NCBI GenBank assembly: GCA_020632095.1 | Contig: JACKGF010000001.1 | Location: 930,713-994,712, forward strand | Source: Candidatus Nomurabacteria bacterium | GTDB lineage: Bacteria > Patescibacteriota > Minisyncoccia > Phycocordibacterales > UBA918 | Length of the DNA stretch: 64,000 nt | Direction of reading: 5' to 3' | Part shown: piece after piece, positions 7,146 through 59,971 of the stretch | Numbering within the stretch: position 1 is the first letter of the stretch | Layout of the letters: the number at the start of each line of letters is the position of its first letter | The notes under the pieces: model-generated | Database searches by the model: none | The model's input: only the letters and a program-made list of their open reading frames with translations | Told to the model about the DNA's origin: nothing | Program-made: the position numbers and the translations under genes

Positions 7146-7678
7146 GTATGAGTCGATTAGGAAAAATTCCAGTAACTATTCCAGCCGGCGTCACTGTGAC
7201 GTTTGCGGACGGGGTACTGACGGTCCAAGGACAAAAAGCGACACTAACTCGTGAGATGAAAGATGATGTAAATGTGGTTGTTGCCGATGGCACAATTACT
7301 TTTTCACCAGGTAACACACCAGAAGCTAAGGCTTTGTGGGGAACTTACGCTGCTCACGCTCGAAATATGATTACTGGTGTAACTGAAGGGTTCACTAAGA
7401 TTCTTGAAATCGAAGGAGTTGGTTACCGAGCAGAAGTGAAGGGAAATGAAATCGTTTTGAACGTTGGATTTTCTCATCAAGTCATGCTGACTATTCCCGC
7501 AGGCATGACAGCTGAAGTAGTAAAGAATGTTATTACTCTAACTGGGTATGACAAAGATGCACTAGGTCAGTTTGCTGCTAATGTGCGTAAGGTTAAGAAG
7601 CCTGAACCATACAAAGGAAAGGGTATTAGGTACCGAGGAGAATTTGTTATCCGCAAGCAAGGTAAGAAGTCTGTTTAG
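7139..7678 (+). CDS. rplF: 50S ribosomal protein L6
   Basis: MSRLGKIPVTIPAGVTV... two-domain L6 signature. Confidence 0.85.
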   Translation: MVSMSRLGKIPVTIPAGVTVTFADGVLTVQGQKATLTREMKDDVNVVVADGTITFSPGNTPEAKALWGTYAAHARNMITGVTEGFTKILEIEGVGYRAEVKGNEIVLNVGFSHQVMLTIPAGMTAEVVKNVITLTGYDKDALGQFAANVRKVKKPEPYKGKGIRYRGEFVIRKQGKKSV

Positions 7679-7687
7679 TTTCAGTAA

Positions 7688-8044
7688 TTGTATATGGAAA
7701 AATCACAATACAAATCACAAATGCGAACACAGCGTCACAAGCGTTTACGTTCAAAGGTGTCTGGTACTGCAGCTCGACCGCGGTTAGCAGTATTTAGGAG
7801 TAATACAGCAGTGTATGCTCAATTGATAGACGATGAAGCCGGAAAGACATTAGGAGCAGCTGATTCTCGAAAGGAAGCAAAAGGCACTCTAGTCGAAAAG
7901 TCTAAGTTAGTAGGAGCAAATATCGCTAAAATGGCGGTAGAAGCTAAGATTACTGAAGTAGTCTTTGACCGTGGTGGTTTTCGCTATCAGGGCACAATAG
8001 CCGCTTTGGCTGATGCAGCAAGAGAGGGAGGGTTGAAGTTTTAG
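7688..8044 (+). CDS. rplR: 50S ribosomal protein L18
   Basis: [24 protein letters not shown]...DRGGFRYQG typical L18. Confidence 0.8.
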
Positions 8045-50281: not shown

Positions 50282-50770
50282 TCTTATTTTCTCCAGTCAA
50301 AAAACATTTCAACCTATAGTAAAGATTATTTAATCACACAAGTCAATCATAGGTTAGGTCATTTAAATTTTTGAAACGGATAGAATATTGAATGATAACA
50401 AATTCATGTTTTGTTTCTTTTTTGTTTCTTGTGAATTGAATTGTAAAAAACGGCCCGGTGTTTATTCCGGGCCGAGGTTGACATTGCTTAGACGCCAAAA
50501 TTTTGCTTAGTTAGGCGATCGATGGTGCCATCACCCCACATTTTCAACAAAACGGCGTTAAAAGTTTCCCGCAGATTGCCAGGTGTATCGGTTTCATCAC
50601 AAGAGTTTTGCAATCTGAACGGCGTTTAGGGTCGCACCCTTCAGTACTTAGTCGCCTACGACCCAGATAATCACAAAGCCACCGCTCTGTTGAGCGGTGG
50701 CTTTGTGATTTCAAGTCCTAAAAAGTTTCTTTAGCCCGAAATACTAAATATTGAGAATGAAATAGACACT

Positions 50771-51133
50771 TTGCTTAGCAGAGTTACCAAGACAGAAAAC
50801 CAAAGCCTAATAAAAATATATGAAGATAAGATTACTAGTGCGCAAAGGAAAAAAGTAAAGCTACAGAATAGTAAGACCATTAGCAAAAGAACCAAAGAAG
50901 AATTTAGAACCGCCTTAGATGAGGTGATGGGTTGTGTTAAAAGCCCTTACAATACATGGCTGAATGGAGGCTTTAACGACAAAAGACTAGTATTATTACT
51001 AGTCTTTGTCGAGCCTATTGTATATAGCGTAGAAAATGGATTTAGAACCACAAATCCGTCGCATATTTTAAGGTTGTTTGAGGATTTTGTGTTTACAAAC
51101 TCCCAAGATGTGGAAGACTTTGCACCAAGTTAG
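50771..51133 (+). pseudogene. C-terminal fragment of a large serine recombinase (paralogous to 56627-58243)
   Basis: LNGGFNDKRLVLLLVFVEPIVYSVENGFRTTNPSHILRLFEDFVFTNSQDVE aligns with the last 60 aa of the intact recombinase (WDSDSLDDKRLVIKLVF...VIRLFERIRATNSQDVE); no catalytic domain present. Confidence 0.6.
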
Positions 51134-51191: not shown

Positions 51192-51467
51192 TTATTTCAT
51201 TGAAACCTGCAGTGATAGATCAAGTGCTTTTGCAATTTTGTGTAGTGTTTGTAGGGAAGGGTTACCTTCGCCTCGTTCGAGTCTAGAAATAACTGGCTGA
51301 CGGCTACCAACAGCCTCTGCGAGTTGTGTCTGAGACCAGCCACGCTTAATACGTTGGTTGATGATAGTTTTAACCACTTCATACTCAGGTTCAAGAGCAT
51401 CGTATTCAGCTTTCACTGCGGGGTTCTTGAGAGCCTTGTTTTTAAATTGGTTGAATGTAGTTGTCAT
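51192..51467 (-). CDS. HTH-XRE antitoxin (HigA-like)
   Basis: RGWSQTQLAEAVGSRQPVISRLERGEGNPSLQTLHKIAKAL helix-turn-helix; downstream partner of the toxin gene. Confidence 0.65.
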   Translation of the reverse strand: MTTTFNQFKNKALKNPAVKAEYDALEPEYEVVKTIINQRIKRGWSQTQLAEAVGSRQPVISRLERGEGNPSLQTLHKIAKALDLSLQVSMK

Positions 51468-51493
51468 GAGTTAAATATAACTTATAAGTTATA

Positions 51494-51799
51494 TTACTGC
51501 AAGTTTTCTTTTGTTTCCCGTGCTCTTGTCAGTTCCTTCTCTAGGGTCCTTTGAGTTTTCTTTATACAGGAGTGCAGTAGGACGGCTTTATTTTTATGGA
51601 AACAGTAGAATATTCTGATTTCTCGTTTACCTCGAATACGCAGTTCTAACAAACCATCATCCATATGTCTACTGTGAGGCATTCCCAATTTATTTCCAAA
51701 TTCTTCCAATAGTTCAATAGTACGAATGACTTTAGCGATTTCTTTCTCATTCAGTTTTTCAATAAATGTTTCAACTGAATTTAGTAGATCAATTTGCAT
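51494..51799 (-). CDS. HigB/Gp49-like (RelE superfamily) toxin
   Basis: KVIRTIELLEEFGNKLGMPHSRHMDDGLLELRIRGKREIRIFYCFH matches Gp49-like addiction-module killer proteins; toxin-then-antitoxin order. Confidence 0.6.
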   Translation of the reverse strand: MQIDLLNSVETFIEKLNEKEIAKVIRTIELLEEFGNKLGMPHSRHMDDGLLELRIRGKREIRIFYCFHKNKAVLLHSCIKKTQRTLEKELTRARETKENLQ

Positions 51800-51880
51800 G
51801 TATTCAGTATAGCAAAATAAAAAACCTACTCAAAAGTAAGTTTTTTATTCTTCCATATATTTCTATGTTTATGTGGAGAT

Positions 51881-51897
51881 GGGGGGATGAACCTGAC
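51881..51897. repeat. 17-bp direct repeat ATGTGGAGATGGGGGGA (copy of ssrA 3' end plus recombinase stop-proximal codons); distal att-like junction
   Basis: Identical 17-mer at 58182-58198; similarity extends with a 2-bp indel (ggggggaTGAACC vs ggggggaatTGAACC). Confidence 0.7.
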
Positions 51898-51994
51898 GGT
51901 TACTAAGCTATTTTTCTTCACTGCGTTCGAAAACTAGCAAGTGCCGCGGGTCACGCCTCATTCGTTCGTCATTCTTCCTCACATCATTCTGGCG

Positions 51995-52037
51995 GTTCAA
52001 TTCCCACGTGAAGCGCGCAGGCGCTTCACTCCCATCT
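51995..52037 (+). other. inverted ssrA-3'-end-like fragment (GGTTCAATTCCC...CCCATCTCCACCA) with 25-nt hairpin insertion
   Basis: 12/12 match to T-loop region and 12/12 to acceptor 3' strand of the minus-strand ssrA, but on the plus strand, ending in CCA, with gtgaagcgc-gcag-gcgcttcac inserted. Confidence 0.5.
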
Positions 52038-52304
52038 CCACCAAAAAACAAAAAACGTCCAAAAGGACGTTAATGTTTTAAAAGTGGACATAGCTAAAAA
52101 CGAGTGGAACCAAATAGAAAGCTACATATTCGAGTCGTACCATATGATACAGGGGCTAAAAATGCGAGATATAGCAACGGTATCATAATGAATTAGTACC
52201 ACAGTGTAGTAATAGAAACACTAGAACAAAAAGAAAAAAGAATTTCATTTATCCGGATAACTACTATAGGGGCATGTGCTCATTCGTTGTAGAATTGAAA
52301 TAAC

Positions 52305-53366
52305 ATGAAAAAGAAACCTAGTTCATTGAAAGCTGTTGACTTCTTCTGTTCTGGAGGAGGAATGACAAATGGTTTAATTCAAGCTGGTATTGAGGTAGTT
52401 GCTGGTATCGATAATGACCCAATTTGTAAGGAAACGTATGAGGCGAACAACCCAGGAGCAGAATTTATACTAGAAGACGTCTTTGATCTTGAGGAGAAAA
52501 AACTTGCTAAGAAACTAGACTTAAAAAAGAATGATGACGATCTTATCCTGATAGGATGTAGCCCATGTCAGTTTTGGTCAATCATCCAGACTGACAAAAC
52601 AAAATCTGAAAAATCGAAGAATCTATTAATCGAATTTCAAAGGTTTGTTAAATACTTTAACCCAGGTTATGTACTGGTTGAGAATGTGCCGGGTATATTA
52701 AATCGAAAAGAGGAGAGTGGCTTGAAAAAGTTTGTCGATGATCTGGAGAATGATAGTTATGTGGTTCACTACGATATCGTAAACATGAACGATTATGGAG
52801 TGCCACAAGCAAGGCGCAGATTTTCTCTGATCGCTACACGATTACAAGATGTTCCTATAAAGTTAAGTCCGAAAAAGAAAAAACTAACACTTCGTGACGT
52901 TCTTGGTGAAGCTAATGGATTTCCAAAAATTGGACCCGGTCATGTAGACAAAAGTAGTCTTCAGCACTCAACAGCAAAGCTGACTGAAATAAATGTAAAA
53001 AGATTAAAGAAGACTAGGAAGAATGGTGGGTCTTGGCTTGATTGGGCAGATGATCCAGAACTAAAAAGAAAGTCTTATCGAGGTAAAGATTTCAAAGATA
53101 ATTATGGACGTATGAGTTGGGATAAGCCAGCCCCAACAATAACCACAAAATACATCAGTGTTTCTAATGGTAGATTTGCCCACCCAGATGAGAACAGGGG
53201 AATTTCAGTAAGAGAAGGTGCAACAATCCAAACTTTTCCTAAAAACTATGAATTCCGCACAGCATCTATTGCGTCAGCCGCAAAAATTGTTGGCAATGCT
53301 GTTCCCCCTGCCTTTGCAAAAACACTCGGAAAGAGTATTGTAAAGGCACATGCCACAAGAAAATGA
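52305..53366 (+). CDS. dcm: DNA (cytosine-5)-methyltransferase
   Basis: Motif I FFCSGGGMTNG, motif IV GCSPCQFWS, motif VI ENVPGIL, conserved C-terminal QTFP...GNAVPP. Confidence 0.85.
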   Translation: MKKKPSSLKAVDFFCSGGGMTNGLIQAGIEVVAGIDNDPICKETYEANNPGAEFILEDVFDLEEKKLAKKLDLKKNDDDLILIGCSPCQFWSIIQTDKTKSEKSKNLLIEFQRFVKYFNPGYVLVENVPGILNRKEESGLKKFVDDLENDSYVVHYDIVNMNDYGVPQARRRFSLIATRLQDVPIKLSPKKKKLTLRDVLGEANGFPKIGPGHVDKSSLQHSTAKLTEINVKRLKKTRKNGGSWLDWADDPELKRKSYRGKDFKDNYGRMSWDKPAPTITTKYISVSNGRFAHPDENRGISVREGATIQTFPKNYEFRTASIASAAKIVGNAVPPAFAKTLGKSIVKAHATRK

Positions 53367-55005
53367 GCCACTAAAAATGTCTTTCGATCCTAATACGATC
53401 GAACATTTGGGTGTGCGAATGTACTCAACTATACCTCCAGTCTTGGCGGAGCTTATTGCAAATTCTTATGATGCTAATGCCAAAGAAGTGCATATACAGC
53501 TGAACGACACTGACAGTAAAGAAATCATTGTTTCCGATAATGGTCATGGAATGAGCAAAGAGGATATTAATGGAAAATTCCTTCGCATTGGTAGGAATAG
53601 AAGAGACGGAGGTGATACTGCAGAGGAGGGTAGCAGGAAGCCAATTGGAAAGAAGGGACTAGGTAAGCTTTCTTTCTTTGGTATCGCAGATGAAATCGAA
53701 GTTGTTACAGTTCGAAATAATCTCAAGAATGTCTTCTTGATGAAATGGGATGATATAAAAAATACTGAAGACGGAAAGAATTATGAGCCGACAGTAATTG
53801 TTGATAATGAGTCAACAGAAGAGGAGAATGGAACTTCCATTGTTTTAAAAAACATACGGCGCACTAGTGATTTTGTGGCGCAAGACCTCGCTGTGTCGTT
53901 GTCGAAGGTCTTTGTTGTAGACAAAACATTTGGAATTTTTGTCAGACGCAATGAAGAAGATCCTGTTCAGGTAGATAACAAGATGAAATATGATGGTCTC
54001 AATGTAGAGGTTGAGTGGAATGTGCCATCTGACGTGTCTCTAGAGTCAGAATACCCTAATAAGGGAGATGTTACTGGGCACTTGATTTCAACAGAAAAGC
54101 CGATTTCCCCGCAGACGAATATGCGAGGAATAACACTTTTCTCTAGAAACAAGATGGTTAATTTGCCAGAATATTTTTCTGACAGTACTTCCAGTCACTT
54201 TTACTCGTATCTTACCGGGGAGCTACATGTTGATTTTATTGATGAGCTTGATGAAGATGTTATCGGAACTGATAGACAGTCTCTCAATTGGGGTCAGCCA
54301 GAAATGACCGAGCTAAGAGATTACTTACGTTCACTGATGAATTGGCTCGAAAGAGACTGGCGTACAAAAAGAGAAACAAAGAGACAGGAGAAACTAGATA
54401 AACAGCTAGGTATTAAAACTGACGAATGGTTTGGAACAATGCCTGATGATATAAGAGCCCAAGCCGAGACGATCGTTAAAGCAATTGTTAAGGACTCAGA
54501 ATTACCAGAAGAAATCGGATCTGCAGCCGTAAAAAGTTTTCATGCTCTCGTGCCAGAGTATCCTAAATACTATTGGCGACACCTGCATGATGAGGTTAAG
54601 GATGCATCTAGTGAATATTATCAATCAGGCGATTATTACCATGCGTTTATTGAAGCTTCAAAGAGATACGTAAATGCAGTTAGAGCAAAAGCTGTAAGGA
54701 CAACACGTGATGAGCGTGCACTTATGCAAGAAGTATTCCCAGAAGCAAGTCCTATCTTGTCGGTGACCGAAGGTTACCTAAAGCCAGATGGTAATGAATT
54801 TACGGCAGATACATTGAAAAACATCCGGGTGGCTCAACAAATGTTCTCTGAAGGTGTAATCTGCGGAGGTAGACATCCGATATCTCATGAAGAAATCGTT
54901 GACTTACGTGAGTCGGAATTATTTACAGAAAAGGATTGTTTAGACGCCCTAAGTCTTTTGTCGCATCTGTTCTGGAGACTCGAACATTCAACGAAGATGC
55001 GGTAA
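53350..55005 (+). CDS. GHKL-family (HATPase_c, MORC/MutL-like) ATPase with alpha-helical C-terminal domain carrying an Rx4H (HEPN-like) motif
   Basis: N-box ELIANSYDA, G1 DNGHGM, G2 GKKGLGKLSFFG; C-terminus GGRHPISHEE; translationally coupled to dcm (16-nt overlap). Confidence 0.6.
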   Translation: MPQENEPLKMSFDPNTIEHLGVRMYSTIPPVLAELIANSYDANAKEVHIQLNDTDSKEIIVSDNGHGMSKEDINGKFLRIGRNRRDGGDTAEEGSRKPIGKKGLGKLSFFGIADEIEVVTVRNNLKNVFLMKWDDIKNTEDGKNYEPTVIVDNESTEEENGTSIVLKNIRRTSDFVAQDLAVSLSKVFVVDKTFGIFVRRNEEDPVQVDNKMKYDGLNVEVEWNVPSDVSLESEYPNKGDVTGHLISTEKPISPQTNMRGITLFSRNKMVNLPEYFSDSTSSHFYSYLTGELHVDFIDELDEDVIGTDRQSLNWGQPEMTELRDYLRSLMNWLERDWRTKRETKRQEKLDKQLGIKTDEWFGTMPDDIRAQAETIVKAIVKDSELPEEIGSAAVKSFHALVPEYPKYYWRHLHDEVKDASSEYYQSGDYYHAFIEASKRYVNAVRAKAVRTTRDERALMQEVFPEASPILSVTEGYLKPDGNEFTADTLKNIRVAQQMFSEGVICGGRHPISHEEIVDLRESELFTEKDCLDALSLLSHLFWRLEHSTKMR

Positions 55006-55069
55006 GATTACATTATCTCCGCAATGGAGTTACAACACCTAACCCTCGCAAGAGATATGGTGCACAGAA

Positions 55070-55137
55070 TCCCACGCTAGTAGAAACGACCGTATAAGTC
55101 GGCACTTACTAGCGTGGGTTCACATCCGAAAGGATGT
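55070..55137 (+). other. tandem stem-loops downstream of the GHKL gene (12-bp stem cccacgctagta/tactagcgtggg, then cacatccgaaaggatgtg)
   Basis: Seen directly; a third copy of cccacgctaga at 55209-55219. Confidence 0.5.
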
Positions 55138-55222
55138 GGGATAATTCTCGAAAGAGAGTTGTCGTCGGTCTTGTGCGGTCGTTTGTGTACACAGGATCGA
55201 AATTAAAACCCACGCTAGAAAT

Positions 55223-55468
55223 ATGAATATTAAAAAAGTATTAAAGTACTTGGTGATTGTGGTATGTATTGCCATAATCATCTTGTTGCTTGCCGCTTAT
55301 TCCTCTGCTAAATCTGATTATCGAACTGCAGGAAAGCATTGTGACAACTATGCACGAGAGCAGGCAGGATCAAGAGGAGGTATGGTTACGTTGTATGAGC
55401 CATTGTACGTTTCTTGTATGCGATCCAATGGATATCTACTAGATGTCAGAGAAATGGAGTCAAATTAG
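55223..55468 (+). CDS. small membrane-anchored protein
   Basis: 81 aa with N-terminal TM helix. Confidence 0.3.
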   Translation: MNIKKVLKYLVIVVCIAIIILLLAAYSSAKSDYRTAGKHCDNYAREQAGSRGGMVTLYEPLYVSCMRSNGYLLDVREMESN

Positions 55469-55950
55469 GTTGTGTACCACCAAAGAAGAATAGCTAGGAA
55501 TTGATTGTAGAAAGCATGGATCAACAAAGGAATAATCAATGCGAAAGCATAGTACCTCTTCGATTTTAGTCTCACAGCACGATCAAACATGACTGCCATA
55601 GCCACGCCGGCAATTGCGTGCATCCATGGAGTAATTAGACTTGCTGTCCCATTCGGGAACCAGAAGTGGGTCAACTGCTCACCAAAACCATACCCAAGAC
55701 CAATAAATGCGATTGTAAGAGGAATTGCGCCGAGTCTGAGGGTTATGAGCGCAAATACGAATTTGAGCGATTCTTCGAGCAGTGCGCCGTATACAAACAA
55801 GCGCCATGGCACATCAGGGAATTCAAAGCGTAATAGTACTTCAAAGTGTAAAAACATCAGTACTATTCCAGAGACAAATAATGTAAAAGCTTGCAGGTAT
55901 CTTTTCATACAGACAATCATAACTTGAAAACTTGAAAAAATAGACTCCAA
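55465..55950 (-). CDS. small polytopic membrane protein (CPBP-like?)
   Basis: 161 aa, 4-5 TM helices, LLEESLKF and HxxxG-like segments weakly reminiscent of CPBP/Abi proteases. Confidence 0.3.
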   Translation of the reverse strand: MESIFSSFQVMIVCMKRYLQAFTLFVSGIVLMFLHFEVLLRFEFPDVPWRLFVYGALLEESLKFVFALITLRLGAIPLTIAFIGLGYGFGEQLTHFWFPNGTASLITPWMHAIAGVAMAVMFDRAVRLKSKRYYAFALIIPLLIHAFYNQFLAILLWWYTT

Positions 55951-56478
55951 TCAAGTTTAAGTCAGTTGAATTCCTTGAAAAAAATCACTCTATTCAACCA
56001 ACTTACAAACTGAAAAAACTGATTAAAATGTACTTAATCAGTTTCTGTAAACTTTGAAAAGATTGAAAAAAAGAGACTAATTCAATCTCTCCACAAGTAG
56101 ACACAAAAATGACAATTGCTTATTACAAACAGACGTATATACTGAGAGTAACAACTGAATATCTTAAGCTCTAGTGAGAGAAATGTTACTTGATTTGATT
56201 GAATCTGGCTTGGCGAGGCAAAATAATACGTGTGAAGACATTGTCCCTGGTAGTACGCTCTGGGTCGGACAGCATCAGAAAGACTATTTGTAACATCATG
56301 TCTTATCTCACATAAGAGGACGTATGTACTACGTTGAGCGGGTGCCTCTGAGAATCGTCTTGAATGGAAATTCGAGATGGTTCTCAGGGGTATTTTTGTT
56401 GGATTAAAGTCAGCCACACATTGTCCCGCTTTTGTTGGGTAGGTCGAGTGGCTGAACTTACCTAACAAAAGATGGATA

Positions 56479-56649
56479 ATGTTATCGATAGAAGAGTGTC
56501 GCCAGCACCTAAATGATCCAGAGTTAACCGATGAGAAGGTCGAAGAGATTCGTGATGTTCTGTACAGTTTTGCAGAAAGTGCACTAGATAAACACCTGTT
56601 TAGCGGTAGTGTGTCCTTGCAAGACAATGGCGAAGAAAAAACAAATTAA
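56479..56649 (+). CDS. small acidic alpha-helical ORF overlapping the recombinase start (unannotated, 56 aa)
   Basis: MLSIEECRQHLNDPELTDEKVEEIRDVLYSFAESALDKHLFSG...; below the ORF-track cutoff; ends 23 nt into the recombinase gene. Confidence 0.2.
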   Translation: MLSIEECRQHLNDPELTDEKVEEIRDVLYSFAESALDKHLFSGSVSLQDNGEEKTN

Positions 56650-58243
56650 TAAAGTGATGGCTCTCATTTATTGTCGAGTATCGTCAGACAGGCAGATGCA
56701 AGAGGGTCATGGGCTAGATAGTCAAGAGCAACGCTGTAAAAAGTATGCGCTTGAGCATAACTATGGAGTAGAAAAGGTATTCAGAGACAGCTACACAGGC
56801 GGTGGTGATTTTATGAAGAGACCTGCGATGGCTGATATGATTTCATACATTGAGAAAAAGCCATACACAAACTATGTCGTGATCTTCGATGATACAAAAC
56901 GATTGGCACGTGATCACATGGAGTATTGGCGACTAAGAAACTTGTTTAAGTCTCTGGAAGCTGAAGTTGAATCACCAAACTTTAGCTTTGGTGACACGGA
57001 AGAATCTTGGCTTCAGGAAGCTATAACAGCTATCTTCAGTGACTTCGAAAGAAGGTCGAACAAACGACAGGTTAATCAGAAGATGCGTGCCAGGTTAGAA
57101 TCTGGTTACTGGACATTTAATTCAACAGAAGTACCGGGCTATAAGAGGAAAGATTTGCCTGATAAAACTTGGATCCTTGTTAGGAGTGAACCGAAGGCAA
57201 GCATTATTAAAGAAGCATTGGAAGGTTATGCAAATGGCAGGTTTGACACTAAGACAGACGTACAAAAGTTTCTCCAGAGGAAAAATTATCTAGCAGAAAA
57301 CAAACAAAAAAGAGTTTACCTATCTAGAGTAGATCGGCTACTTGAAAGATCATGGTTGTATGCTGGATTTATTGAGCATCTCGAATGGGAGGTGGAGCGT
57401 CGTATAGGTAAGCACGAGGCAATCATTACTCTGGAGGTATTAAAGAGAATTGAAGATAAGTTACAGAATAAAAGCAGGGTGCGAATCCGTAAGGATTACA
57501 ATGAAGACTTTCCGTTAAGACCGCATGTGCTATGTGCTGGTTGTGGCAAGAAACTAACAGCAAGTTGGACTAGGGGAAGGAGCGGAACTTATCATCCGTA
57601 TTATAGATGTAGTAACGACTCGAAAGTGTGTCCATATGGAAATAAGAGCATACGAAGGGAAGCGATGGAAACGGAGTTTAGGGAGTTGCTTACCAGTCTG
57701 AGACCCAATCAGGGGGTTGTGTCGTTGACTCGAGCAATATTAGATGACCTGTACAAAAAGAAGCATTCTGAGACAGAAGGGTATCAAGCTGATATTGATA
57801 AGCAACTAAGGAAGTTGGATACTGAAATTGAAAAGTTGATGGACCGAGCAATGAATACAAAGAATGAGATCATGGCTGAGAGGTATGACGAACAAGCTTC
57901 GAAACTAATAGAGGAAAAAGAAAAGTTGCTAGAGAATAACAGTAAATCGGATAACTTCGATGTGGACTTTGGAACCGCCTGTGATGAAGTGATGTCAGTA
58001 ATAAATAATCCAGTAAACAAATGGGATTCTGACAGTCTTGATGATAAAAGACTAGTAATAAAGCTGGTTTTCGATGGTGATCCTACATATGACAAAATCC
58101 ATGGCTTTGGAACCACGGATTTGTCATGTGTTATAAGGTTATTTGAGAGAATTCGTGCTACGAATTCCCAGGATGTGGAGATGGGGGGAATTGAACCCCC
58201 GTCCGAATTAGGGTGCGATTGTGAATCTACAGTGTGTAGCTGA
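56627..58243 (+). CDS. large serine recombinase (resolvase/invertase N-domain + recombinase domain + zinc ribbon + coiled coil); C-terminus reads into the tmRNA gene
   Basis: ALIYCRVSSDRQ catalytic-Ser motif, zinc ribbon CAGCGKKL...YYRC; last 17 codons (MGGIEPPSELGCDCESTVCS) are translated from ssrA 3'-end DNA; start set at MAKKKQ (56627). Confidence 0.8.
   Translation: MAKKKQINKVMALIYCRVSSDRQMQEGHGLDSQEQRCKKYALEHNYGVEKVFRDSYTGGGDFMKRPAMADMISYIEKKPYTNYVVIFDDTKRLARDHMEYWRLRNLFKSLEAEVESPNFSFGDTEESWLQEAITAIFSDFERRSNKRQVNQKMRARLESGYWTFNSTEVPGYKRKDLPDKTWILVRSEPKASIIKEALEGYANGRFDTKTDVQKFLQRKNYLAENKQKRVYLSRVDRLLERSWLYAGFIEHLEWEVERRIGKHEAIITLEVLKRIEDKLQNKSRVRIRKDYNEDFPLRPHVLCAGCGKKLTASWTRGRSGTYHPYYRCSNDSKVCPYGNKSIRREAMETEFRELLTSLRPNQGVVSLTRAILDDLYKKKHSETEGYQADIDKQLRKLDTEIEKLMDRAMNTKNEIMAERYDEQASKLIEEKEKLLENNSKSDNFDVDFGTACDEVMSVINNPVNKWDSDSLDDKRLVIKLVFDGDPTYDKIHGFGTTDLSCVIRLFERIRATNSQDVEMGGIEPPSELGCDCESTVCS
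58182..58198. repeat. 17-bp direct repeat, proximal copy overlapping ssrA 3' end
   Basis: Identical to 51881-51897. Confidence 0.7.
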
Positions 58244-58579
58244 TTCCTTGGGTTTAAAATCATTTGCTTGAGAACGAGCAAAACACAAATGATTCGAGTT
58301 GTTTAATTCTTAGTCGCCTACGACAACGGCAAAGGTAACCATAGTCTCGTGTTTATTCTACGAGAAGTGCCGTATGAGACGTTTAACACTTTCGCATCGA
58401 TCCGGCAGGCGTATGATTACGCAAATGCGGGAGCGAATCCAAACGCGTTAGCGTAAGGACTTACTATTGCTTTTTTTGCAAGTAGATAGTGGAACCTTTT
58501 AACGAATTGATTACCAATTTCGACACTGCACACAACCGACACGACTAACCGTCGATGCCGAGCATCCCCTCAGTGGTAG
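58185..58579 (-). ncRNA. ssrA: tmRNA (transfer-messenger RNA)
   Basis: Minus strand: 5' GGGGAUGCUCGGCAUCGACGG (cf. E. coli GGGGCUGAUUCUGGAUUCGACGG); G3:U70 wobble and A73 Ala identity; T-arm GGGGGUUCAAUUCCCCC; internal tag ORF GCU AAC GCG UUU GGA UUC GCU CCC GCA UUU GCG UAA (ANAFGFAPAFA*); smpB 950 bp upstream. Confidence 0.7.
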
Positions 58580-59508: not shown

Positions 59509-59526
59509 ACCGTCTTACATTCAATT
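59509..59526. repeat. 18-bp inverted repeat, right arm
   Basis: ACCGTCTTACATTCAATT, reverse complement of 59111-59128. Confidence 0.7.
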
Positions 59527-59971
59527 ATTGAGATTTCAAGGTGCGGTTGATTTCGCGTTTGACGTCGCGGGCTTTGATGGATTCACGTTTATCGTGTTTC
59601 TTCTTACCACGTGCTACGGCGACTTCGAGCTTGATTTTCTGCTTATTATTGTACAACCTAACAGCCATAGCTGTCAAGCCAGCTGTTTCGGTTTGGTTTT
59701 CGAGCCGAGCAATTTCTTTTTTGGATAAAAGGAGTTTACGCGGTCGTTCACTGTCGTAGCTTTTGGGAGTGTTGACTGGCTGGAAGGCAGTAATATGAGC
59801 ACCAACCAAGTAGGCTTCACCACCACGTACGATTACATAAGCGCCTTCCAGCTTACCTTTCTTGGCGCGAATACCCTTAACTTCATATCCGTGCAACACC
59901 AAACCAGCTTCAAAAGTCTCAAGGATGTCGAAGTCAAAGCGGGCTTTTCTATTTTGGATATAAGTTGTCAT
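59525..59971 (-). CDS. smpB: SsrA-binding protein SmpB
   Basis: 148 aa; RKARFDFDILETFEAGLVLHGYEVK...GAHI SmpB signature and basic C-terminal tail. Confidence 0.85.
   Translation of the reverse strand: MTTYIQNRKARFDFDILETFEAGLVLHGYEVKGIRAKKGKLEGAYVIVRGGEAYLVGAHITAFQPVNTPKSYDSERPRKLLLSKKEIARLENQTETAGLTAMAVRLYNNKQKIKLEVAVARGKKKHDKRESIKARDVKREINRTLKSQ

Follow-up and report, generated by a model that had tools for sequence, protein, structure and literature searches.

The window analysed here is a stretch of 64,000 nucleotides (nt) from a Candidatus Nomurabacteria genome (contig JACKGF010000001.1, positions 930,713 to 994,712), within which a C5-cytosine DNA methyltransferase (methylase) gene is followed by, and overlaps, a gene for a single protein that joins a GHKL ATPase of paraMORC type to a C-terminal HEPN domain. 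The second protein is referred to below as ATPase-HEPN; a database entry from Candidatus Nomurabacteria, annotated as a TIGR02391 family protein, is 100% identical to it. The two genes and the parts of the fusion are placed in the window as follows.

52305-53366, plus strand: C5-cytosine DNA methyltransferase, 353 amino acids (aa), NmeAI-type (Pfam, PADLOC and NCBIfam matches)
53350-55005, plus strand: paraMORC-type GHKL ATPase fused to a Ymh-family HEPN domain, 551 aa (Pfam HATPase_c_3 and Hypoth_Ymh; TIGR02391)
53350-53859, plus strand: GHKL (Bergerat-fold) ATP-binding domain, about aa 1-170 (motif conservation; Foldseek)
53860-54297, plus strand: beta-rich middle (S5-like/transducer) domain, about aa 171-316 (AlphaFold2 (AF2) secondary structure; Foldseek; conservation)
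54298-54561, plus strand: helical linker, about aa 317-404, with a long helix at 317-353 (AF2 model)
54562-55002, plus strand: HEPN domain of the Ymh / TIGR02391 family, about aa 405-551 (Pfam PF09509; TIGR02391)
54871-54888, plus strand: Rx4H motif R508-H-P-I-S-H513, predicted RNase catalytic residues (translation; homolog conservation)

Residues 9-347 of the first gene product match the Pfam DNA_methylase model (E 8e-59), and the protein also scores 139 bits against TIGR00675 dcm (cut-off 100.65) and matches MTase_II, the Type II methyltransferase models of PADLOC, at E 4e-90. The ATPase-HEPN gene opens with an ATG at 53350, with AAGG 6 nt on its 5' side, and the TGA stop of the methylase gene lies at 53364-53366, which gives an overlap of 17 nt with the stop included. 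A second, highly conserved methionine (M10, 53377) could be an alternative true start of the ATPase-HEPN gene, and the two genes are tightly packed with either start. A promoter scan of the operon gave no enrichment over shuffled sequence, and a terminator scan found no clear candidate on its 3' side.

The N-terminal part of the fusion carries the motifs of a GHKL ATPase. HATPase_c_3 matches residues 29-145 at E 9e-22, above the Pfam cut-off, and the motifs ELIANSYDA (aa 34-42), DNGHGM (63-68) and GKKGLGKLSFFG (100-111) are followed far downstream by GGRHPISHEE (506-515). Conservation was read from two sets of homologs, one of 120 sequences at 54-100% identity and one of 68 more divergent, genome-derived sequences from bacteria and archaea. 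The motif I-III residues E34, N38, D41, D63, G65, G67, G100, G103 and G105 are invariant in both sets, as are the loop G100-G111 and residues T307 and R309 of the S5-like middle domain; T162 of motif IV is present in 120 of 120 and in 66 of 68. Given the invariance of the GHKL motif residues and of T307 and R309, the ATPase of the fusion is expected to be active.

Because a sequence search of the PDB returned only weak matches to the N-terminal parts of Hsp90 and MutL, and none to the C-terminus, comparison at the level of the fold was needed. The AF2 model of the full-length protein has a predicted local distance difference test (pLDDT) score of 86 and falls into the four parts listed above, and in Foldseek the first 380 to 400 or so residues or columns align with the N and M domains of Hsp90, GRP94 and TRAP1 and with the ATPase cassettes of MORC3 and MORC2. 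In paraMORC ATPases the GHKL domain is followed by an S5-fold domain that provides a conserved basic residue (Iyer et al. 2008). The beta-rich middle, a putative S5 fold, aligns with the Hsp90 middle domain and the MORC cassettes, and includes the invariant R309, a candidate for that residue. These comparisons support a GHKL+S5 module of the MORC/paraMORC/Hsp90 type. Residues 9-380 also match positions 2-399 of the 659 in NF050001, the BbrUII/HgiDII family, at 246 bits against a cut-off of 550. The middle-domain region is common to that family, and W337, R341 and R369 of the linker, a possible dimerisation element, are conserved in it as well.

The remaining part of the protein is a HEPN domain. 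Hypoth_Ymh (PF09509) matches residues 410-543 at E 1.4e-12 (48 bits, cut-off 25) and TIGR02391 matches at 47.6 bits (cut-off 39.45), and Anantharaman et al. 2013 (PMC3710099) count Ymh among the families of the HEPN superfamily. The final 150 or so residues are mostly helical in confident models, with one short strand-containing insert at about aa 470-483, and they form the helical-bundle core of the HEPN fold. Both R508 and H513 are found in all 120 of the closer homologs and E514 in 119; among the more divergent ones the arginine is kept in 67 of 68 and the histidine in 68 of 68. The family consensus at this point is R-N-P-V-A-H-E, the residue that follows the arginine being mostly asparagine. 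On three independent lines of evidence the C-terminus is thus a HEPN domain. HEPN chemistry relies on the 2'-OH of RNA and needs no metal (PMC3710099; also general knowledge).

A sequence-only reading of this DNA had called a cytosine-5 methyltransferase with all canonical motifs and, overlapping it, a protein with a Bergerat ATP-binding fold and a C-terminal Rx4H HEPN signature, and had named profile searches as a check. The database models bear out all three assignments, HATPase_c_3 and Hypoth_Ymh both exceeding their Pfam cut-offs at scores far beyond what chance would give, and the quoted motifs lie where they had been placed. Three details needed adjustment: the overlap is real, though 17 nt rather than the 16 nt first counted; the C-terminal 150 aa, predicted all-alpha, are largely so except for the strand-containing insert; and the ATPase, rightly placed among GHKL proteins, had been labelled MORC-like. 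MORCs are set apart from paraMORCs by a sequence motif of their own (Iyer et al. 2008). The likeness to MORC consists here of matches to general GHKL models and of fold similarity to MORC2 and MORC3, and the nearest relatives in sequence are paraMORC3-like enzymes. The ATPase is better stated to be paraMORC, its closest N-terminal relatives being enzymes of the HgiDII/BbrUII type.

The pairing of methylase and ATPase-HEPN is conserved well beyond the window. A genome scan with one genome per species found at least 564 loci that encode the fusion; 80 were kept for analysis of their neighbourhoods, three of which lack sufficient upstream sequence, leaving 77 informative. More than 120 clusters of full-length homologs have the same architecture, from Patescibacteria, Clostridium, Anaerolineales, Woesearchaeota and other groups. 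Of the 77 informative loci, drawn from many bacterial and archaeal phyla, 67 have a homolog of the window's C5-methylase, encoded on the same strand, as the gene immediately upstream, and the two genes overlap in 30 loci. A gene for the Vsr mismatch endonuclease (Pfam Vsr) adjoins the pair in 41 of the 80; besides methylase and Vsr, no further conserved gene or nuclease was found among these loci. The identities of the two proteins co-vary from locus to locus (Spearman 0.35), which is consistent with their inheritance as one unit. In collections of phages and plasmids there are few full-length relatives, and the three records listed as plasmids that reach at least 80% query coverage comprise one Burkholderia replicon and two Neisseria records of about 2.17 Mb, which look like chromosomes filed as plasmids.

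The loci that depart from this pattern are informative as to partners. In L028 the upstream genes encode an HpaII-type methylase, about 24% identical to that of the window, and R.HpaII (PF09561, E 1e-110), and L033 and L038 have a methylase of the L028 type together with a small open reading frame (ORF) that has a weak, sub-threshold BsaWI-like match. HpaII-like restriction-modification (R-M) genes lie just upstream of the usual methylase/ATPase-HEPN pair in L070 and L076, and further exceptions are an HNH_2 gene in L054 and an N6/N4 methylase in L053. In the window itself, scans with Pfam, PADLOC and NCBIfam models found no recognisable DNase domain in any gene of the island that carries the pair. 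Neither of the outcomes that the sequence-only reading had named as refuting it was seen: in most of the informative loci the ATPase gene has a methylase beside it, and the C-terminal domain models as HEPN with its R and H conserved. Its statement that there is no separate endonuclease holds for the window and for most loci, and fails for the minority in which an HpaII-type or HNH enzyme is adjacent.

We note a different arrangement in the Chryseobacterium loci L031 and L032 (4321-5925), where the gene immediately upstream of ATPase-HEPN encodes a Response_reg_2 (PF19192) protein and the methylase gene is found about 5 kb away. Response_reg_2 has been reported with paraMORC-like GHKL proteins (PMC8011034), and its presence here suggests a variant regulatory wiring of the same effector.

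A probable target for the methylase can be named. M.NmeAI methylates CCGG (PMC4676702, PMC7973814), and the two halves of the window methylase share 65% and 56% identity, or about 60%, with the methylase of a Neisseria gonorrhoeae locus (L081) that we infer from its architecture to be the NmeAI ortholog; CCGG is accordingly the probable specificity of the window enzyme. Since at least two unrelated methylase families, of which at least one is tied to CCGG, pair with the same ATPase-HEPN protein, sensing of a mark on DNA is favoured over a specific partnership between proteins, and the ATPase-HEPN family appears to be tied to marks of the CCGG type.

The best explanation of the module, to which we give about an even chance, is that methylation gates the ATP-dependent activation of an RNase, for abortive defence, for addiction, or for both. 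The methylase would mark and protect host DNA, probably at CCGG, and the ATPase, a dimeric clamp driven by ATP, would detect sites on incoming DNA that lack methylation, or the loss of methylation once the module itself is lost. The ATPase cycle would join or release two HEPN domains to give an active composite RNase, cleavage of cellular or phage RNA would lead to growth arrest, and the outcome would be abortive defence and/or post-segregational addiction. Such a module would be an R-M-like system whose restriction arm is directed against RNA and not DNA, as was predicted in 2013 by analogy with PrrC and RloC. A more specific form of this proposal, in which a MORC-like, ATP-driven clamp reads unmethylated CCGG on foreign DNA and, instead of cutting that DNA, switches on the RNase in an abortive response, the protein having arisen by replacement of an HgiDII/Shedu-like PD-(D/E)xK DNase by HEPN, is tentative, and we would sooner expect it to fail in some particular than to hold in full.

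Several points weigh against methylation-gated RNase activation. No element that reads DNA sequence or methylation was identified in ATPase-HEPN, and the searchable literature yielded no experimental study of any member of the GHKL-HEPN/paraMORC-HEPN family. Among HEPN domains there are non-catalytic binders, so that catalysis by this one is a prediction, as is the composite active site of a HEPN dimer. The CCGG assignment draws on the roughly 60% identity to a Neisseria ortholog and on the M.NmeAI literature rather than on a methylome, and the window shows no depletion of CCGG (observed/expected 0.97). The most depleted 4-mer there is GATC (0.57), and for an island acquired recently the depletion of palindromes tells nothing about the site of its methylase. 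Finally, the true restriction enzyme that lies beside the gene in a few loci fits an accessory or guard role equally well.

Two alternatives deserve to be weighed at length. ATPase-HEPN could be an ordinary Type II restriction enzyme that cuts unmethylated DNA at the methylase site, its HEPN domain serving as a module for dimerisation or DNA binding or as an unusual DNase, and we consider this unlikely. The REBASE-style name R.NmeAIP, borne by a protein of the same architecture in Neisseria meningitidis, implies such a role; the operon layout, with the methylase gene upstream and overlapping, is identical to that of Type II R-M systems; an association with Vsr is typical of C5 R-M loci; and most loci are without any other candidate gene for the restriction function. 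The N-terminal 380 aa are, moreover, homologous to the BbrUII/HgiDII restriction enzymes, and the REase_II models of PADLOC match. The PD-(D/E)xK-like C-terminus of that sister family is, however, precisely the part that is missing, and the score of 246 bits falls well below the family cut-off of 550. While the locus supplies the cognate DNA methyltransferase of a Type II system, no DNase-type domain was detected in ATPase-HEPN or in the island; HEPN is the sole nuclease-type domain, and its metal-independent chemistry uses the 2'-OH of RNA. If ATPase-HEPN were a CCGG endonuclease, the separate HpaII-type enzyme in L028, L070 and L076 would also be redundant.

The other alternative is a guard in the manner of PrrC, in which the HEPN RNase is silenced by the bound methylase, or by an R-M complex, and is fired by a phage anti-restriction factor acting against that partner or by loss of the partner, with no reading of methylation at all. 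The analogy has been drawn in the literature (PMC3710099), the tight translational coupling of the two genes suggests stoichiometric co-production, and in some loci the gene follows a complete R-M pair, as prrC lies within EcoprrI. The co-variation of methylase and ATPase-HEPN identities (Spearman 0.35) would also suit a latch, although it could reflect mere joint inheritance. A specific latch is hard to square with partners as unrelated as the NmeAI-type and HpaII-type methylases, at about 24% identity, and most loci have no restriction enzyme to guard, a methylase alone being no defence worth guarding; we therefore regard the guard as improbable, to the same degree as the Type II enzyme.

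Very improbable is a housekeeping or repair accessory without any role in conflict, in which a MutL-like ATPase aids the Vsr-dependent very-short-patch repair of T:G mismatches left by deamination of 5-methylcytosine: Vsr stands beside the pair in 41 of the 80 loci, ATPase-HEPN has weak matches to the MutL N-terminus, and Iyer et al. 2008 likened paraMORC/methylase/Vsr loci to MutL-dependent repair, but Vsr is absent from the window and from about half of the loci, the invariant Rx4H of the HEPN domain is left without a role, and a patchy distribution over bacteria and archaea at 40-69% identity, together with carriage on a mobile island, is typical of defence or addiction genes.

Should methylation-gated RNase activation prove to be right, the family would constitute a widespread R-M-like class, present in at least 564 species genomes, that discriminates self from non-self on DNA and executes on RNA; no experimental demonstration of a system of this kind was found in the searchable literature. 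It would join methylation-based self-recognition to an RNA-degrading effector, as a hybrid of restriction-modification and abortive infection, and it would offer a simple bacterial model of the coupling between GHKL/MORC-type clamps and their effector domains. Members of the family are common and highly conserved, and occur in pathogens (Neisseria) as well as in the reduced genomes of the Candidate Phyla Radiation (CPR), yet their annotation goes no further than 'TIGR02391 family protein' or 'ATP-binding protein'. For the window alone, the gain is mainly that a module already known, though uncharacterised, is now correctly annotated on a small island that targets a transfer-messenger RNA (tmRNA) gene.

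The module is carried by a 6.3-kb serine-recombinase island (51871-58197) in the tmRNA gene of Candidatus Nomurabacteria, and the mobile setting that the sequence-only reading had proposed is thereby confirmed, by repeats of the tmRNA gene end and by the recombinase. The features that delimit the island are these.

51871-51893, no strand: left island boundary (attL-like), a copy of the tmRNA gene 3' end (17-nt exact repeat)
58173-58197, no strand: right island boundary (attR-like), inside the tmRNA gene 3' end (repeat partner of the left boundary)
56609-58243, plus strand: large serine recombinase, 544 aa (Pfam Resolvase and Zn_ribbon_recom)
about 58173-58569, minus strand: tmRNA (ssrA) gene (ARAGORN, 58175-58569; Rfam RF00023, 110 bits)
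59525-59971, minus strand: smpB, just beyond the island

The repeats at the two ends are spaced 6302 nt apart and agree over 17 nt exactly and at 23 of 25 positions in an extended alignment. The last 70 nt or so of the recombinase gene overlap the tmRNA gene at the island end, and the tmRNA 3' end is therefore regenerated upon integration. A Paceibacterota genome (L001) carries a homologous island in which the genes follow one another in the same order.

A LOOT RNA (Rfam RF03000) lies at 55036-55163 on the plus strand, 30 nt past the ATPase-HEPN stop, and scores 56.5 bits against a gathering score of 46.4. The island of L001 has a LOOT RNA in the same position (7676-7809, plus strand), with several paired positions of the Rfam consensus changed on both sides, as judged by eye, and none was found in twelve other loci with the gene pair. 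Because it was found only in this homologous island, the LOOT RNA seems to belong to the tmRNA-island type and not to the methylase/ATPase module. Between it and the recombinase gene, the island encodes two small predicted membrane proteins at 55223-55950, one of 81 aa on the plus strand and, on the minus strand, one of 161 aa that weakly matches PrsW proteases.

To the left of the island, the segment 50640-51133 contains a 120-aa ORF (50771-51133) that shares 37% identity with the last 115 aa of the recombinase (E 9e-22), and another tmRNA-like fragment is found at 50647-50662. The segment has the look of what remains of an earlier island of similar kind, which would suggest repeated insertions at one site. 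A HigB/HigA-like toxin-antitoxin pair (51192-51799, minus strand) lies between this remnant and the present island, and is made up of a Gp49/DUF891 toxin-like protein of 101 aa and an HTH_3 antitoxin-like protein of 91 aa. Just inside the left end, at 51990-52075 on the plus strand, is an inverted partial copy of the T-arm and acceptor of the tmRNA (GGCGGTTCAATTCCCAC ... TCCCATCTCCACCA), split by a strong hairpin of 9 bp (GTGAAGCGC/GCGCTTCAC); another hairpin, at 52054-52071, is flanked by A-runs and T-runs in the manner of a bidirectional terminator. The fold z-score for 51895-52075 is -3.5, and neither ARAGORN nor Rfam gave a match at 51990-52075; it may be what is left of an att site, or an element that the island carries.

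Among described systems, NmeAI (V.NmeAI / M.NmeAI / R.NmeAIP) has the same architecture and like the window locus combines a C5-methylase with a GHKL protein that ends in Hypoth_Ymh, R.NmeAIP of Neisseria meningitidis having been described as GHKL + Hypoth_Ymh by Orlowski & Bujnicki (2008, PMC2441816). No activity of R.NmeAIP was found reported in the literature covered. The L081 protein of N. gonorrhoeae aligns to 99% of ATPase-HEPN at 37% identity and its gene is followed by a Vsr gene, unlike the window locus, which has no Vsr and lies on a CPR tmRNA island. In L081 (NZ_CP119142.1, 1547366-1558976; a 2.17-Mb replicon that PLSDB lists as a plasmid) the module has decayed: a frameshift disrupts the methylase, two in-frame stops make the ATPase-HEPN gene a pseudogene, and the Vsr ORF downstream is intact. 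In R-M neighbourhoods, Anantharaman et al. 2013 found paraMORC GHKL ATPases with Ymh fused at their C-terminal ends, and they predicted for these a role like that of PrrC/RloC (PMC3710099). The sequence-only reading had taken the GHKL-HEPN fusion to be undescribed, which these reports of 2008 and 2013 contradict: the fusion was already known computationally and is widespread, and the window locus is a further member. What is new here is the CCGG link, the operon statistics and the N-terminal homology to HgiDII/BbrUII, the 2013 survey having given the fusion one sentence.

The module has features by which paraMORC loci are known (Iyer et al. 2008), a GHKL domain with all four ATP-binding motifs and a methylase/Vsr neighbourhood (67 of 77 and 41 of 80 loci). 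PrrC and RloC share a plan in which an ATPase module is fused to an Rx4H-type RNase within R-M loci, as an RNA-targeting back-up to restriction. Their ATPase is of the ABC/Rad50-type P-loop kind, unrelated to the GHKL domain of ATPase-HEPN, and PrrC is linked to a Type I enzyme, whereas most ATPase-HEPN loci carry a methylase only; the likeness is one of functional analogy. Sacsin of eukaryotes, a giant chaperone-like protein of many domains, has no methylase context, and the resemblance is architectural and probably convergent. Among other candidates, WonAB of V. cholerae was rejected as a relative, being an ABC ATPase with a PD-(D/E)xK nuclease, and the HEPN systems considered from the DefensePredictor paper (e.g. 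DS-11, CBS+HEPN) are not the GHKL-HEPN fusion.

HgiDII and BbrUII, which cleave GTCGAC, stand nearest to the N-terminal engine. Proteins of their family are also encoded directly downstream of a C5-methylase, and they align with ATPase-HEPN up to about aa 400, after which they continue with a domain of their own of about 260 aa that has the pattern WL(L/I)DP ... D ... (D/E)xK. ATPase-HEPN lacks this C-terminal nuclease-like domain and so is not a full-length member of NF050001, in contrast to true members such as a Halobaculum protein (801 bits) and a protein of phage PhiR44_1 (751 bits); the latter, annotated 'ParaMORC3', was considered as a HEPN fusion and rejected, as it belongs to the BbrUII/HgiDII family. 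The RE-fold nuclease of paraMORC3 (Iyer et al. 2008) matches the D...(D/E)xK domain of these proteins, as does the DUF4263/Shedu nuclease of GHKL-Shedu proteins (PMC12137116). Since the alignment runs to about aa 400 and is then followed by a different nuclease domain, HEPN taking the place of the PD-(D/E)xK-like C-terminus, ATPase-HEPN is best seen, on the evidence of these alignments, as the same GHKL+S5 engine carrying a putative RNase instead of a DNase.

The GHKL-Shedu protein VcSduA of Vibrio cholerae (type I-D Shedu, formerly annotated paraMORC3) requires both its ATPase and its nuclease residues for phage defence (PMC12137116). Its effector is a DUF4263 PD-(D/E)xK DNase and it has no methylase partner, unlike ATPase-HEPN, in which Pfam finds no DUF4263 nuclease domain and the C-terminus is HEPN. 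Like ATPase-HEPN, however, VcSduA is one polypeptide in which an N-terminal GHKL ATPase is proposed to control a C-terminal nuclease (PMC12137116), and it thus provides, in a validated defence protein, a precedent for the control of a fused nuclease by a GHKL domain, which supports the proposal that methylation gates an ATP-dependent RNase in the module described here.

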